Shown: positions 7,644 through 17,395 of the stretch, piece after piece | Numbering within the stretch: position 1 is the stretch's first letter | Layout: each line of letters begins with the position of its first letter | Origin: Geobacter metallireducens GS-15 | GTDB taxonomy: Bacteria > Desulfobacterota > Desulfuromonadia > Geobacterales > Geobacteraceae | DNA: 32,000 bases | Reading direction: 5' to 3' | Assembly (NCBI RefSeq): GCF_000012925.1 | Contig: NC_007517.1 | Coordinates: 60,001 to 92,000 of the forward strand | The notes under the pieces: model-generated | What the model saw: the letters and a program-made list of their open reading frames with translations, nothing else | What the model was told of the DNA's origin: nothing | Database searches by the model: none | Position numbers and translations under genes: made by a program

Positions 7644-7672
7644 TTGCAGGGGTGGCAGCAGCACGGTATACT
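7644..7672 (+). promoter_or_regulatory. Strong sigma70-type promoter with no ORF immediately downstream
   Basis: TTGCAG (7644-7649), an exactly 17-nt spacer, then TATACT (7667-7672), preceded by an AT-rich tract. Confidence 0.5.
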
Positions 7673-7678
7673 ATAAGT

Positions 7679-7754
7679 GAAAGAATTGCGAGGGTCGCAA
7701 GGCCCTCATTATGCCCTAGTTGACTTTCCCTCCTAGTCGCTAGGGTGTTTTTTT
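7679..7754 (+). ncRNA. Candidate ~75-nt small RNA or terminated leader
   Basis: Begins about 7 nt after the -10 element. Hairpin GAGGGTC-GCAA-GGCCCTC (7690-7707) has a GNRA loop. A second hairpin pairs CCCTAG (7714-7719) with CTAGGG (7740-7745) and is followed by a T7 run (7748-7754). No credible ORF lies inside. Confidence 0.35.
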
Positions 7755-7763
7755 GCCTGCTGG

Positions 7764-7781
7764 TGTGCCACGTGTGACACA
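7764..7781. promoter_or_regulatory. Site A of a repeated 18-bp palindromic motif (putative activator binding site)
   Basis: TGTGCCAcgtGTGACACA. The two halves are reverse-complementary at 7 of 9 positions. Confidence 0.5.
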
Positions 7782-7793
7782 GTGCTCTCCGGG

Positions 7794-7811
7794 TGTGCCA
7801 TTGGTTGCACA
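7794..7811. promoter_or_regulatory. Site B of the 18-bp motif, 30 bp from site A and overlapping a possible -35 of the regulator gene
   Basis: TGTGCCAttgGTTGCACA. It contains TTGCAC (7805-7810), which lies 16 nt upstream of TATATG (7827-7832). Confidence 0.45.
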
Positions 7812-7894
7812 GGGAGGCGGGCCTGGTATATGATCCAGCGGTGGATCAGGCAATCAACAGAGTGTCAGGCCTAACATTATCAGCTGGGAGAACC

Positions 7895-10165
7895 ATGGAA
7901 CCGATCATTACCGTAAAAGAGAAGTGCCGTAAATGCTACTGCTGTGTCCGGAGTTGCCCGGTCAAGGCGATCAAGGTGGCCAAGAGCTACACCGAGATCA
8001 TCGTCGACCGGTGCATCGGCTGCGGCAACTGTCTCAGCAACTGCCCCCAGCAGGCAAAGATGGTGGCCGACAAGGTGGGGGTGACCGAAAAGCTCCTCTC
8101 CTCGGGGGAGGAAGTTATCGCCGTGCTCGGATCCTCTTTTCCCGCCTTTTTCCACAATGTTACCCCCGGTCAGTTGGTGGCGGGCCTCAGGAAGATCGGC
8201 TTTGCCGAGGTCCACGAAGGATCCTATGGGGCCGAACTGATTGCCGACGATTATGCCCGAATCACGTCGGAAAAGGGACACCCCCGTATCTCGTCCCACT
8301 GCCCTGCCATCGTCGATCTCATCGAGCGCCACTACCCGAAGCTCGTGGGGAACCTCGTGCCGGTGGTGTCCCCCATGGTGGCCATGGGGCGGTATCTCAA
8401 GGGGACCCTGGGGCAGCACGTGAGGGTTGTCTACATAAGCTCCTGCGTTGCCAACAAGCTGGAAACGCAGACCCAGGAGACCCGCGGCGCCGTTGACATC
8501 GTTCTGACCTACCGGGAACTGGAGGGTATCTTCCGGAGCCGCCAGATAGCCCTGCCGGCCCTTGCCGACGAGCCCCTCGACGGAATCAGGCCGGGGGCCG
8601 GCCGGCTTTTTCCCATTGCCGACGGGACGTTCCGGGCCTTCGGCATCCCTTTTGATCCCCTGGACACCGAGATCGTCGCCGCCTGTGGCGAGGTGAACGT
8701 CATGGGTATCATCAATGACCTGGCAGCTGGCCGCATCTCCCCCCGGATCGCCGACCTCCGTTTCTGCTACGACGGCTGCATCGGCGGCCCCGGCAGAAAC
8801 CGGGCGCTTACGGAGTTTTACCGCCGCAACCGGGTGATTGCCCACTTCAAGCAGGAGGTCCCCTGCCGGACGGTCCCCAATTCCCTCCTTGAGGCAGGGC
8901 GGGTCTCCTTTGGCCGCAGCTTCGCCAGCAAGTACGCGAAACTGGAGGCCCCCAAGGCGAACGACGTCCGCAAGATCCTCAACGCCACCAACAAGTTCAC
9001 GGTGAAGGACGAGCTCAACTGCCGGGCCTGCGGTTACCGCACCTGCCGCGAGTACGCTGTGGCAGTCTTTCAGGGGCTCGCGGAGATTGAGATGTGCCTC
9101 CCTTACAACCTCCAGCAACTGGAGGAGGACCGGGGGCGCCTCATTCAGAAGTACGAGTTGGCGCGGCGGGAACTGGAACGGGAGTACGGGGACGAGTTCA
9201 TCGTGGGCAACGACCGCAAGACCCTGGATGTGCTCGGCCTCATCAAACAGGTGGGACCCACCCCCACAACGGTTCTCATTCGGGGGGAGTCAGGTACCGG
9301 CAAGGAGCTCACCGCCCGGGCGATCCACCGCTACAGCAAGCGCAACGACAAACCGCTGGTTACCGTCAACTGCACCACTATCACCGACTCTCTCCTGGAG
9401 AGCGAACTCTTTGGCCACAAGCGGGGAGCCTTCACCGGTGCCGTTGCCGACAAGAAAGGGCTCTTTGAGGCCGCCGACGGGGGGACGATCTTCCTCGATG
9501 AGATCGGCGACATAACCCCCAAGCTCCAGGCGGAGCTCTTGCGGGTTCTCGATATGGGGGAGGTGCGCCCCGTGGGGGGGACTGCAGCAAAAAAGGTGGA
9601 TGTGCGCCTCATTGCCGCCACCAACAAGAACCTGGAACAGGGGGTCCGCGAGGGGTGGTTCCGGGAGGATCTCTATTACCGGCTCAACGTCTTCACCATT
9701 ACCATGCCCCCCCTGCGAAGCCGCGTCGAGTCGATTCCCATTCTGGTCCACCACTTTATGGACAAGGCAAGCACCAAGCTCAACAAGCGGATGGTCGGCA
9801 TCGAGGACCGTGCCGTCAAGGCGCTCACAAAGTACCCGTGGCCCGGCAATATCCGTGAGATGCAGAACGTCATCGAGCGGGCTGCCGTTCTCACCCATGA
9901 CGGCGTGATCCGGGTCGAGAACTTTCCCCTTGCCCTCTCTGAGGGGCTTGAGGAGGGGTTCGCCACGGGGCTCGACATCCACGCAGCATCGTTTCGGTCC
10001 GAGCGGGAGCAACATATGGGGAAGCTGGAGAAAAAGCTTATACAGCGCTACCTGACGGAGGCCAACGGCAATATTTCGCGGGCGGCGAAGCTGGCAAACA
10101 TCCCCCGGCGGACCTTTTATCGGCTTCTCGATAAGTACCGCCTCAGGGAACGGGATGTTCGCTAA
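7895..10165 (+). CDS. Sigma54-dependent transcriptional activator with N-terminal 2x[4Fe-4S] ferredoxin and [FeFe]-hydrogenase-like sensor domains and a C-terminal Fis-type HTH
   Basis: Ferredoxin motifs CRKCYCCVRSCP and CIGCGNCLSNCP. Hydrogenase-like motifs SSHCPA, SSCVANKLE and FCYDGCIGGPG, plus a CRACGYRTC Fe-S-like motif. AAA+ core with GESGTGKE, GAFTGA and ESELFGH. HTH NISRAAKLANIPRRTFYRLL. The ATG at 7895 follows GGGAG. The ORF-track start at 7793 is a GTG inside motif site B. Confidence 0.85.
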   Translation: MEPIITVKEKCRKCYCCVRSCPVKAIKVAKSYTEIIVDRCIGCGNCLSNCPQQAKMVADKVGVTEKLLSSGEEVIAVLGSSFPAFFHNVTPGQLVAGLRKIGFAEVHEGSYGAELIADDYARITSEKGHPRISSHCPAIVDLIERHYPKLVGNLVPVVSPMVAMGRYLKGTLGQHVRVVYISSCVANKLETQTQETRGAVDIVLTYRELEGIFRSRQIALPALADEPLDGIRPGAGRLFPIADGTFRAFGIPFDPLDTEIVAACGEVNVMGIINDLAAGRISPRIADLRFCYDGCIGGPGRNRALTEFYRRNRVIAHFKQEVPCRTVPNSLLEAGRVSFGRSFASKYAKLEAPKANDVRKILNATNKFTVKDELNCRACGYRTCREYAVAVFQGLAEIEMCLPYNLQQLEEDRGRLIQKYELARRELEREYGDEFIVGNDRKTLDVLGLIKQVGPTPTTVLIRGESGTGKELTARAIHRYSKRNDKPLVTVNCTTITDSLLESELFGHKRGAFTGAVADKKGLFEAADGGTIFLDEIGDITPKLQAELLRVLDMGEVRPVGGTAAKKVDVRLIAATNKNLEQGVREGWFREDLYYRLNVFTITMPPLRSRVESIPILVHHFMDKASTKLNKRMVGIEDRAVKALTKYPWPGNIREMQNVIERAAVLTHDGVIRVENFPLALSEGLEEGFATGLDIHAASFRSEREQHMGKLEKKLIQRYLTEANGNISRAAKLANIPRRTFYRLLDKYRLRERDVR

Positions 10166-10212
10166 CTCCTTGATGGCGCAGCGTAAACAAAGTGTGCACT
10201 TTTGGCCAACTC

Positions 10213-10230
10213 TGTGCCATCGGTGACACA
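10213..10230. promoter_or_regulatory. Site C of the 18-bp motif, in UAS position about 95-110 bp upstream of the sigma54 promoter
   Basis: TGTGCCAtcgGTGACACA, followed by an AT-rich stretch (about 10240-10320) that could accommodate DNA bending. Confidence 0.55.
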
Positions 10231-10324
10231 ATTGTGTATACAGAATATTTTATTAATTCAAACCAATGTTCTAAAAATGCAATAATTTTGAACCGTTGCG
10301 ACTGAGTTATCGATTTCCGTGTTT

Positions 10325-10340
10325 TGGCATGCAAATGGCA
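10325..10340 (+). promoter_or_regulatory. Sigma54 (-24/-12) promoter
   Basis: TGGCATgcaaaTGGCA. GG is at 10326-10327 and GC at 10338-10339, the canonical 12-nt register of TGGCACG-N4-TTGCW. It lies about 60 nt upstream of the ATG at 10400. Confidence 0.7.
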
Positions 10341-10399
10341 ATAGTGTTGTCTCATACGATTGAACGTAACCGAGCACACTATACACGGAGGAACAGACC

Positions 10400-10591
10400 A
10401 TGGGCAGAATGAGAGAAAATCCGCGGTACAACGTCATATCCATGAGAATCAGCGACGAGGAGCGTGATCGGCTCCAGCAGATAATGGAGGCAACCCAGAA
10501 GAGTGTCTCCGACATCATGCGCGAGGCCATGGAGATTTTCGCCGTTCAATTGCAAAAGACGGAGCAGCCCCACCACCAGAAGGCCGCTTAA
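10400..10591 (+). CDS. 63-aa ribbon-helix-helix (CopG/Arc-like) DNA-binding protein
   Basis: NVISMRISDEERDRLQQIMEATQKSVSDIMREAMEIF fits a beta-strand/helix/helix RHH pattern. GGAGGA sits 7 nt before the ATG. The gene is followed directly by a strong terminator. Confidence 0.65.
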   Translation: MGRMRENPRYNVISMRISDEERDRLQQIMEATQKSVSDIMREAMEIFAVQLQKTEQPHHQKAA

Positions 10592-10627
10592 GAAAAAAGG
10601 GCCGCTACTTGCGGCCCTTTTTCTTAA
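10592..10627. terminator. Bidirectional intrinsic terminator shared by the RHH gene (+) and cysS (-)
   Basis: A6-GGGCCGC-tactt-GCGGCCC-T5, nested in a near-perfect CTTAAG...CTTAAG palindrome. Confidence 0.8.
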
Positions 10628-10633
10628 GCTGAT

Positions 10634-10651
10634 TGTGCCAAAGGTGTCACA
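10634..10651. promoter_or_regulatory. Site D of the 18-bp motif, between the terminator and the cysS stop codon
   Basis: TGTGCCAaagGTGTCACA. Confidence 0.4.
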
Positions 10652-10680
10652 GGGGATGGGAATCCTGTGGCAACCATATG

Positions 10681-12138
<1,458 letters not shown>

Positions 12139-12157: not shown

Positions 12158-13819
12158 TTATTTCTTGGTCCAGGAATCCCGCAGGGTCACCGTCCGGTTG
12201 AAGACCGGCGCCCCTGGTCGTGAATCCTTCAGGTCAACGCAGAAGTATCCCTGCCGTTCAAACTGGAAGCGGTCCTCGGCCTGGGCTGTAGCAAGGGAGG
12301 GTTCCAGCCGGCAGTCGGCCAGAATCTCCATGGATGCCGGATTCAGGTGGTCCTTCCAGTCGTCGCCGGAGGGGTTAGGGTCGGTGAAGAGCCGGTCGTA
12401 GAGGCGCACCTTCGCTGTTTCGGCGTGGCGGGCCGACACCCAGTGGATGACCCCCTTCACCTTCCGCTCGGACCCTGGGAGACCGCTGCGGGTTTCGGGA
12501 TCGTAGGTACAGCGGACCGCGGTGACGGCGCCCTCGGCATCCTTCTCCACGTCGACGCACTTAATGATGTATGCCCCCCGCAGCCGGATCTCCTCCCCGG
12601 GGGAGAGGCGCTTGAATCCCTTGGGGGGAACTTCCGCAAAATCATCCTGCTCGATGAAGAGCTCGCTGCAGAAGGGGACCACCCGGCTCCCCAGCTCAGG
12701 CTTCTGGGGGTGGTACGGGATGGTGAGCTCCTCCGCCTCCCCTTCCGGATAATCCTCTATGACGAGCCGCAGGGGCTTCAGCACCGCCATGACCCGGGGT
12801 GCCCGCTCGTTCAGGTCCTGGCGAACGCTCTCCTCCAGGATGCTCATGTCGATCCAGCTGTCGCTCCGCCCCACGCCGATGGTCTCGCAGAAGTTTCTGA
12901 CCGCCTCGGGAGTGTAGCCACGGCGCCGGATCCCCATGATGGTAGGCATGCGCGGGTCGTCCCAGCCGGAGACGTCGCCGTCCTTCACCAACTGCAGGAG
13001 CTTGCGCTTGCTCATGACCGCGTAGGTGAGGTTCAGGCGCGCGAACTCGTACTGGCGGGGGCGGTTGGGCACCGGCAGGTTGTCCAGGAACCACTCGTAG
13101 AGAGGCTTGTGGTCCTCGAACTCCAGGGTGCAGATGGAGTGGGTGATCCCCTCGATGGCGTCGGACTGGCCGTGGGCGTAGTCGTACATGGGGTAGATGC
13201 GCCAGGCGTCACCCACGTGGGGGTGGGAGGCGTGGATGATCCGGTACATGACCGGGTCCCGGAGGTTCATGTTGGGGGAGGCCATGTCTATCTTCGCCCG
13301 GAGCACCTTGGCGCCGTCGGGAAACTCCCCGGCCCGCATCCGGCGGAAAAGATCCAGGTTCTCCTCCGGGGAGCGGTTGCGCCAGGGGCTCTCCTTCCCC
13401 GCCTCGGTCAGGGTGCCGCGGTGGGCCCGGATCTCCTCGGCCGTCAGGTCGTCCACGTAGGCCTTCCCCTGGAGGATTAGGTGCTCTGCCCACTGGTAGA
13501 GCTGCTCGAAGTACTCGGAGGCGTAGTAGAGGTGCGTCCCCCATGAGAAGCCGAGCCACCGCACGCTTTCCTTGATGGATTCCACATACTCGGTTTCTTC
13601 CTTTACCGGGTTCGTGTCGTCGAAGCGGAGGTGGCAGCGGCCCCCGAACTCCTTTGCCAGGCCGAAGTTCAGGCAGATGGACTTGGCGTGGCCGATGTGG
13701 AGATAGCCGTTGGGCTCAGGGGGGAAGCGGGTGACGATGGTTTCGCGTTTGCCGCCCTTCAGGTCCTCCTGAACGATGGTGCGGAGGAAGTTGGCGGTGT
13801 GGGGCGTTTCGGTTGACAT
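12158..13819 (-). CDS. glnS: Glutamine--tRNA ligase
   Basis: [29 protein letters not shown], and the length (553 aa) and C-terminal anticodon-binding region typical of GlnRS. Confidence 0.93.
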
Positions 13820-16633: not shown

Positions 16634-17338
16634 TTAGAGGTCGAGATGGAGGGCGGCTGCGCGCTCCGCCGGCTTGAGGGGAGGCGCTCCGTCGTTCTGC
16701 ATGAGGACCTTGCCGCCGTACTCGGCGTTTTTCCGGACGAGAACTTCGGCCTTGTCCGGGTCCCGCTTGAGGAAAGCCTCGATGATTTTATCGTGCTCCT
16801 GCACCGATATCTTCATCCGTCCGGGTAGGCTCAGGGACGCGTAGCGCAGGCGCTGGAACTTGCGAACGAGGTTTGTAATCAGTTCGTAGAGCTTTTCGTT
16901 GTCGGCTGCCTTGAGGAAAAGATCGTGAAAGTCATTATGGATTCGAAAGAAGTGCTTGATGTCACCGTCGTCGGCCATGTGCCGAAGCCGGTCATTGATG
17001 TTGCGGAGTCGCTCGATATCCTTCGAGGAGAGTTTTTCGCAGGCCCGGCGGGCCGCATACCCTTCGAGGATGCTCTTGATGGCGTAAAATTCCTCCACAT
17101 CCCGGGGGGAGAAGGCCGTTACCACAGCACCCTTGCGGGGGATGACGGTCAGGTACCCTTCCGACTCCAGCTGGCGGAACGCCTCGCGGATCGGGGTGCG
17201 GCTGATGCCGAAACGCTCGGCGAGGTCGGGCTCGGCAACCTTTTCCCCCGGCCTGAGCGCGCCGGTCATGATGGCGTCGCGGATGGTTTCGAGTATCTTT
17301 TCCCTGAGGGTCAGGTGCTTTTCCAGCGTTTTTTTCAT
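16634..17338 (-). CDS. GntR-family (FadR/FCD subtype) transcriptional regulator
   Basis: Winged-helix region LAERFGISRTPIREAFRQLESEGYL, followed by an all-helical FCD-like C-terminal domain. Confidence 0.88.
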   Translation of the reverse strand: MKKTLEKHLTLREKILETIRDAIMTGALRPGEKVAEPDLAERFGISRTPIREAFRQLESEGYLTVIPRKGAVVTAFSPRDVEEFYAIKSILEGYAARRACEKLSSKDIERLRNINDRLRHMADDGDIKHFFRIHNDFHDLFLKAADNEKLYELITNLVRKFQRLRYASLSLPGRMKISVQEHDKIIEAFLKRDPDKAEVLVRKNAEYGGKVLMQNDGAPPLKPAERAAALHLDL

Positions 17339-17367: not shown

Positions 17368-17395
17368 ATTGTATACAGTATACAAGAATTGTCAA
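17368..17395 (-). promoter_or_regulatory. Promoter of the GntR gene with an embedded perfect palindromic operator
   Basis: Minus strand: TTGACA (17395-17390), a 16-nt spacer, then TACAAT (17373-17368). The 17-bp palindrome TTGTATAC-A-GTATACAA (17369-17385) covers the spacer and -10 and matches the GntR-type GT-Nx-AC pattern. Confidence 0.65.

Follow-up and report, generated by a model that had tools for sequence, protein, structure and literature searches.

The DNA analyzed here is a 32,000-nt stretch of the Geobacter metallireducens GS-15 genome (NCBI RefSeq assembly GCF_000012925.1, contig NC_007517.1, positions 60,001 to 92,000 of the forward strand), hereafter referred to as the window. 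It contains the Geobacter hgtR locus, in which the genes for a sigma-54 enhancer-binding protein (EBP) and for the small repressor HgtR are accompanied by several copies of a palindromic DNA motif. It is probable, judging from their sequence and location, that these palindromes constitute enhancer and autoregulatory sites of the EBP, by which this protein would activate hgtR and restrain the expression of its own gene. According to Ueki and Lovley (2010; PMC2817479), hgtR is required for growth on hydrogen and is hydrogen-induced from an RpoN-type -24/-12 promoter, mapped in G. sulfurreducens, while its product represses gltA, nuoA, atpG, gntR and other genes. The same source named the upstream EBP, which carries a hydrogenase-like domain, as a candidate hydrogen sensor activating hgtR. 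The EBP located upstream of GSU3364 was also remarked on by Leang et al. (PMC2725144). The main features of the locus (positions in the window, with the strand where one applies) are as follows:

7764-7781: site A, TGTGCCACGTGTGACACA, a candidate distal operator upstream of the EBP gene
7794-7811: site B, TGTGCCATTGGTTGCACA, a candidate proximal operator, the right half of which holds the predicted -35 element of the EBP gene
7895-10165, + strand: the EBP gene, encoding a 756-amino-acid sigma-54 enhancer-binding protein, ortholog of GSU3363 of G. sulfurreducens
10193-10209: site C', TGTGCACTTTTGGCCAA, a degenerate fifth site with N3 spacing
10213-10230: site C, TGTGCCATCGGTGACACA, the candidate enhancer (upstream activating sequence, UAS) of the hgtR sigma-54 promoter
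10325-10340, + strand: the hgtR sigma-54 promoter, TGGCATGCAAATGGCA, of the form TGGCAT-N5-TGGCA, with GG at 10326-10327 and GC at 10338-10339
10400-10591, + strand: hgtR, a sigma-54-dependent gene encoding the 63-amino-acid ribbon-helix-helix (RHH) repressor HgtR
10594-10622: a bidirectional terminator common to hgtR and cysS
10634-10651: site D, TGTGCCAAAGGTGTCACA, placed beyond the hgtR terminator, within the 3' untranslated region of cysS
10681-10683: the stop codon of cysS

The consensus TGTGCCANNNGTNNCACA has exactly four matches in the window, starting at positions 7764, 7794, 10213 and 10634, all of them on the + strand, and it was not matched by any of 100 dinucleotide-preserving shuffles. 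When up to two mismatches were allowed, only a single additional place was recovered, a weak match inside glnS at position 13198. The motif is better written as the imperfect inverted repeat TGTGCCA-N4-TGGCACA, with one imperfect half in each copy. All four copies are located in non-coding DNA: sites A and B between the terminator of an atoC RNA (ending at 7752) and the EBP start codon (7895), site C between the EBP stop codon (10165) and hgtR (10400), and site D between the common hgtR/cysS terminator and the cysS stop codon. The initial annotation of this DNA, which had listed four non-coding copies at these coordinates, was therefore correct as far as it went; it missed the degenerate fifth site, C'. 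It had also cautioned that the motif was defined post hoc. This concern is answered by the comparison described below, because in independent data the same motif recurs at the same relative positions in dozens of related genomes, within intergenic flanks that cannot be aligned.

For this comparison, 80 loci were fetched, with an alignment of HgtR homologs, from one-genome-per-species Geobacterales assemblies. The identity to the proteins of the window ranges from 61 to 98% for HgtR and from 52 to 99% for the EBP, and the EBP gene is located directly upstream of hgtR in approx. 60 of the 80 loci. Site C in these loci was called with at most three mismatches, and position counts were taken from matrices of 72 C, 40 B and 13 A sequences, in all three of which the conservation of TGTGCCA and TGGCACA is symmetric. 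Outside the hgtR locus the motif is nearly absent, as judged from approx. 0.8 Mb of related sequence. Two further loci, retrieved through homologs of the EBP (L084 and L085), have the standard EBP-hgtR-rng gene order.

Site C is located 177-206 bp upstream of the hgtR ATG codon in nearly every locus, and in 74 of 79 loci it lies at a tightly limited distance from a conserved sigma-54 promoter. The distance from the start of C to the -24 element is 112 bp in the window (TGGCAT at 10325); across the loci it amounts to 101-103 bp in 44 cases, 105 bp in one and 111-118 bp in 29. The two modes are one helical turn apart, which is the behavior expected of an enhancer that must face its promoter. The range of 101-118 bp agrees well with the earlier suggestion that C is a UAS placed approx. 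100 bp upstream of the sigma-54 promoter. When the intergenic regions of 15 Geobacter-clade loci were aligned with MAFFT, conserved blocks within otherwise unalignable DNA corresponded to site C, the -24/-12 elements and the ribosome-binding site. Site C' is also visible in the alignment of the 15 Geobacter-clade loci, as a conserved block TGTG.A....TGG.C, and it is identical in G. sulfurreducens. Its center is located approx. 20.5 bp upstream of that of C, and the two sites together provide four half-sites at 10-, 10- and 11-bp intervals. The upstream position, within the approx. 80-150 bp usual for enhancers of NtrC-family activators, the dyad of approx. 16-18 bp, which suits a dimeric Fis-type helix-turn-helix (HTH) domain, the helical phasing, which would favor oligomer assembly, and the nearby gene for an EBP with a GAFTGA-containing AAA+ domain and an HTH domain are all consistent with a predicted enhancer function.

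The DNA that separates the putative UAS from the promoter contains one further feature:

10231-10300: an AT-rich tract with a GC content of 20-30%

This tract may act as a bend or as a region of the integration host factor (IHF) type. On the minus strand, at 10204-10219, C (by its left half) and C' (by its right half) together create the sequence TGGCACAGAGTTGGCC, which has the GG-N10-GC arrangement and is found in approx. 24 loci. This arrangement is probably a by-product of C and C', although a divergent antisense promoter is conceivable from the sequence. Three loci (L007, L010 and L038) have neither an adjacent EBP gene nor the motif, yet they retain the sigma-54 promoter, which gives weak additional support to the EBP as the protein concerned. 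In L007 (4795-4830) the place of the UAS upstream of the conserved hgtR sigma-54 promoter is taken by a perfect palindrome of different sequence, TGGCTGTAAACAGCCA, which may reflect an activator swap.

The second group of sites precedes the EBP gene itself. The proximal site B is found before the EBP start codon in 55 of the 58 loci with sequence upstream of this gene, at a distance of 46-115 bp, except in L009 (-259). When the 55 loci were aligned with B as the anchor, the 14 motif positions carried near-maximal information and the upstream flank carried none. Position 13 of the motif distinguishes B from C: 33 of 40 distinct B sequences have T, and 62 of 72 C sequences have G. T13 thus maintains TTGCAC (within TTGCACA), a good sigma-70 -35 element, in the right half of B. 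A second conserved block, gTGTATAaT, is located 17 nt after TTGCAC in the 55-locus alignment; it resembles TATAAT and a TG-extended -10 element, for which the spacing from the -35 is 16-17 nt. The corresponding promoter of the window is:

7805-7832, + strand: the predicted EBP sigma-70 promoter, with -35 TTGCAC (7805-7810), a 16-nt spacer and -10 TGgTATATG (7824-7832)

Consensus matching thus places B over the putative sigma-70 -35 of the regulator's own gene, as had been proposed from the window sequence, and the conserved -10 block extends this observation to 55 loci. Negative autoregulation would be the simplest consequence of this overlap. Site A occurs only in Geobacter sensu stricto (13 loci). 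Its spacing to B, start to start, is 30 bp in the window, as in G. sulfurreducens; among the 13 loci, 11 have this spacing and two have 29 bp. The 30-bp phasing noted initially is consequently a maintained property, even though site A is clade-specific.

The EBP contains two [4Fe-4S] ferredoxin domains, a Fe_hyd_lg_C domain (iron-only-hydrogenase large subunit), a FeS domain, a sigma-54-interaction AAA+ domain with intact Walker A and GAFTGA motifs, and an HTH_8 domain of the Fis type (approx. residues 700-756). The H-cluster cysteine motifs SSHCP, SSCVANKLE and FCYDGCIGGPG are retained in its sensor part (residues 1-432; 7895-9190). The residues beside these cysteines seem to differ from those in catalytic [FeFe] hydrogenases.

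The EBP is the best candidate for the binding protein because of the enhancer position and dyad form of the sites, their presence before both the EBP gene and its target, and their near-absence elsewhere. The sites, their conservation and phasing, the promoter overlap and the separate operator of HgtR are observed; the binding protein, the direction of each effect and the signal sensed are inferred. A dimer of the EBP would recognize TGTGCCA-N4-TGGCACA via the C-terminal HTH_8 domain. Sites C and C' would form the enhancer, approx. 105-125 bp upstream of the -24 element. The hydrogenase-like Fe-S sensor may register hydrogen or a reduced state, upon which the EBP would assemble on C and C', contact sigma-54 RNA polymerase across the AT-rich spacer and open the hgtR promoter. 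Binding to B and A, over the predicted sigma-70 -35 of the EBP gene, would allow the protein to limit its own synthesis. HgtR would then repress genes of the tricarboxylic acid (TCA) cycle and respiration via GTATAC-N-GTATAC operators, and a GTATAC box beside the enhancer suggests that it may repress its own gene as well.

The operator of HgtR proved to be distinct from the palindrome. According to PMC2817479, HgtR footprints a 13-nt dyad at gltA, gntR, atpG and nuoA, the gntR promoter being that of G. sulfurreducens. The operator sequence considered here was deduced from the gntR promoter and not from the footprint sequences of that paper. The relevant features of the window are:

16634-17338, - strand: gntR, encoding a GntR/FCD regulator, ortholog of GSU3370, matched by the gntR primers of PMC2817479
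17370-17384: the likely HgtR operator in the gntR promoter, used as the reference, TGTATACAGTATACA, placed within a perfect 17-bp palindrome, TTGTATACAGTATACAA (17369-17385)
10235-10249: an HgtR-operator-like box, TGTATACAGAATATT, matching 12 of the 15 positions of TGTATAC-N-GTATACA and starting 5 bp after site C

In G. sulfurreducens the gntR promoter contains TGTATACTGTATACA between the -35 (TTGACA) and -10 (TACAAT) elements. The dyad GTATAC-N-GTATAC of this promoter fits the 13-nt length, and the TGTGCCA motif is missing from the promoter in the window as well as in G. sulfurreducens. Upstream of hgtR, GTATAC is present in 52 of 79 loci, versus 3.3% of background windows of the same size. 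Two classes of boxes can be recognized: (i) those starting 4-5 bp after site C and (ii) those that follow closely on the sigma-54 -12 element, in the area of the transcription start, e.g. GTATACAGTATAT in L060. In L060 and L064 a GTATAC-type box is found at approx. -68 from the hgtR ATG codon. It is most likely, from the sequences compared, that HgtR has its own autoregulatory box and that the palindrome is a separate element.

Two other sites show a different kind of placement. Site D is located, as described previously, between the cysS stop codon and the common terminator; it is conserved only in the window, L002 (+236) and L003 (+235). In the closest relative, G. hydrogenophilus (L001), it is damaged by a 1-bp deletion, and G. 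sulfurreducens has no counterpart of it. It may serve this lineage as an auxiliary or downstream enhancer site, or it may be in decay. A half-site-like TGTGGCA is present approx. 14 bp downstream of D (10652-10672), with the exact TGTGCCA in L003. This element can pair with the right half of D, giving a hairpin in the cysS 3' untranslated region.

A third full match to the motif, TGTGCCAAAAATTGCACA, was found inside the coding sequence of a radical-SAM protein, in the clade in which rng and the radical-SAM gene follow hgtR. It encodes CVQF(L/M)A and is located approx. 2.0-2.4 kb downstream of the hgtR start and approx. 260 bp upstream of rng (at 7066-7083 in L060, and at approx. +2030 to +2150 from hgtR in approx. 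40 other loci). The synonymous positions of this site are frozen, with Cys encoded by TGT in 35 of 35 cases, Val by GTG in 32 of 32, Ala by GCA in 38 of 40 and Leu by TTG in 24 of 26. In contrast, the conserved residues flanking the site use all codons, e.g. GTC (24), GTT (7) and GTG (2) for Val. The frozen synonymous codons, compared with the free flanks, indicate selection at the nucleotide level. No sigma-54 promoter with the correct spacing and able to drive rng was found near the embedded site.

Several other explanations of the palindromes were weighed against the EBP. The RHH protein, mentioned in the initial annotation as an alternative binder, would gain some plausibility from the location of hgtR between sites C and D and from the fact that RHH proteins commonly autoregulate, by which the palindromes would be HgtR operators controlling both hgtR and the gene of its activator. 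We regard this as very unlikely because HgtR has a different operator: the footprinted gntR promoter contains TGTATAC-N-GTATACA and no TGTGCCA, and a separate GTATAC box accompanies hgtR in 52 of 79 loci. Since this box accounts for HgtR autoregulation, the palindrome is not needed for it. A role of the palindromes at the RNA level, as hairpins that terminate or attenuate transcription or affect mRNA stability, seems hardly credible. Folding predicts only weak hairpins (-2 to -4.6 kcal/mol), not superior to those of shuffled sequences; moreover, the variation preserves the sequence and not the pairing, as TGTGCCA/TGACACA and the T13 of B are mismatched and no compensatory changes are seen. It is true that D forms part of the transcribed 3' untranslated region of cysS, that read-through from the atoC RNA could extend into A and B, and that any palindrome can form a hairpin, but site C lies upstream of the hgtR transcription start.

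The resemblance of the half-site to sigma-54 promoters raises the possibility that the sites are sigma-54 decoys (with the -24-like TGGCAC) or form a divergent promoter of the sigma-54 class. The half-site TGGCACA is identical to the -24 consensus, the minus-strand GG-N10-GC of C/C' occurs in the loci mentioned above, and the true hgtR promoter also has TGGC at -12. This explanation is nonetheless highly improbable, as A, B and D lack a correctly spaced -12 element and their -24-like halves are in opposite orientations. The outer TGTG of C' does not vary, even though its place would be downstream of such a promoter, the symmetric conservation is that expected of a dimeric binder, and a minus-strand promoter at C/C' would yield only transcripts antisense to the EBP gene's 3' end. 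The individual sites do not conform to the sigma-54 promoter pattern GG-N10-GC (TGGCAC-N5-TTGC), which is mimicked only by the C/C' composite. It is less easy to dismiss a factor encoded outside the locus, either another sigma-54 activator or a global regulator of the CRP/FNR type, but we consider it unlikely. In its favor, the motif persists in some loci that have no EBP gene beside it, its TGTG/CACA ends are reminiscent of CRP-type sites, and hgtR expression rises more than 1000-fold upon deletion of BccR, an unrelated EBP (bioRxiv 10.1101/2021.04.15.440034). On the other hand, a CRP site would have the spacing TGTGA-N6-TCACA, compared with the 18-bp TGTG-N10-CACA found here. The motif is also essentially confined to the hgtR locus, it holds an enhancer position relative to the sigma-54 promoter, and its presence before both the EBP gene and the target is the classic signature of a cis-encoded regulator. 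As a class, the sites match neither the 16-bp CRP pattern nor its FNR counterpart (TTGAT-N4-ATCAA).

Several observations weigh against the assignment of the palindromes to the EBP as enhancer and operator. In approx. 12 loci with full upstream sequence the motif is present, in some of them as the variant CGTGCCAGAGWTGGTACA, without an EBP gene within 5 kb, and a tblastn search for the EBP in the 10-kb motif-bearing loci lacking an adjacent EBP gene found none; the binder there must therefore be encoded elsewhere. The IHF consensus WATCAANNNNTTR has no match between the UAS and the hgtR promoter. The overlap of B with the predicted -35 element depends on consensus matching, and the likeness of the TGGCACA half-site to a sigma-54 -24 element makes some contribution of sigma-54 conceivable. 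Finally, site D and the coding-embedded third site do not fit a simple UAS or operator role. It is possible, but rather doubtful, that the EBP forms a higher-order looped complex bracketing the EBP-hgtR unit, or controls further genes via D and the embedded sites; these genes would be the radical-SAM/rng operon and the atoC RNA, affected by a roadblock or from a remote enhancer. If true, such an arrangement would exceed the textbook UAS model.

With the EBP as the probable binder, the sites may be compared with those of well-characterized systems. The NtrC enhancer at glnA/glnL of enteric bacteria has the sequence TGCACCA-N3-TGGTGCA; NtrC binds by a Fis-type HTH and represses the sigma-70 promoters glnAp1 and glnLp by overlapping them. 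The hgtR-locus sites resemble it in being dyads with 7-bp half-sites and an inner CCA...TGG, and also, as far as predicted, in the tandem phased sites approx. 100-140 bp upstream of a sigma-54 promoter, the sigma-70 overlap and the Fis-type HTH. They differ in sequence and in the one base longer spacing (N4, 18 bp in total). Unlike NtrC, the EBP is not a two-component response regulator but carries an [FeFe]-hydrogenase-like Fe-S sensor, and its target is a single small repressor gene. The predicted combination of sigma-54 activation with autorepression of a sigma-70 promoter also recalls the PspF UAS of E. coli (pspF-pspA). PspF uses one set of sites common to divergent genes, whereas in the hgtR locus the genes are in tandem and have separate sets of sites, with the addition of the downstream site D. 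The TGT...ACA ends and the enhancer position upstream of the -24/-12 elements are shared with the NifA UAS (TGT-N10-ACA). All of the sites described here are TGT-N12-ACA, with the longer half-site TGTGCCA, and identification as NifA sites is thereby ruled out, in accordance with the difference in spacing already pointed out in the initial annotation. The HgtR operator belongs to the same cascade and locus as the palindrome, with a GTATAC-type box 5 bp from C, but differs from it in sequence, length, binding protein and position (over sigma-70 promoters or transcription starts).

The assignment of the locus is based on several lines of comparison. HgtR of the window shares 75-98% identity with named Geobacter homologs, and the GSU3364 cloning primer of PMC2817479 encodes MGRMREN. 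The genes following hgtR are cysS, glnS, ispF, ispD and selA, then those encoding the GntR/FCD regulator, a Trk-type channel and a xylose-isomerase-like protein; this gene order agrees with the surroundings of GSU3363-GSU3370 in G. sulfurreducens. The closest named relatives of the GntR protein are from G. grbiciae and G. hydrogenophilus. Directly upstream of the sites lies a structured RNA:

7665-7752, + strand: the atoC RNA motif (Rfam RF01733), scoring 93.9 bits against a gathering score of 50

It has a sigma-70-like promoter (TTGCAG at 7644-7649, TATACT at 7667-7672) and a terminator at 7731-7752, and it ends 12 bp before site A. The atoC RNA also lies upstream of the sites in L001, L005, L020, L023 and L075, while in L051 and L007 it is found immediately upstream of the hgtR enhancer, and no EBP gene intervenes. 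The latter arrangement indicates that the constant partner of the atoC RNA is this regulatory region and not an "atoC" gene. This RNA was originally placed in potential 5' untranslated regions of response-regulator and other genes (Weinberg et al. 2010).

The motif is not described in the literature that we searched on GSU3363, HgtR, the atoC RNA, hydrogenase-domain EBPs, Geobacter genomes, the RpoN regulon and Desulfovibrio EBPs. The cascade leading from the EBP to hgtR had been hypothesized previously. The recognition motif, its autoregulatory copy, site C', the box of HgtR at its own gene and the intragenic site were not found in the searched literature. The element itself, an enhancer combined with an autoregulatory operator in the style of NtrC and PspF, is conventional. 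HgtR is the switch that shuts off TCA-cycle and respiratory genes during growth on hydrogen (PMC2817479), and the way in which this switch is turned on has so far been described only at the level of a proposed hydrogen-sensing EBP. A defined, conserved motif with known positions makes the hydrogen-sensing step in the control of Geobacter central metabolism directly testable. It also provides a handle on whether an [FeFe]-hydrogenase-like domain can serve as a transcriptional sensor of hydrogen or redox state, and it places the orphan atoC RNA motif inside this circuit.

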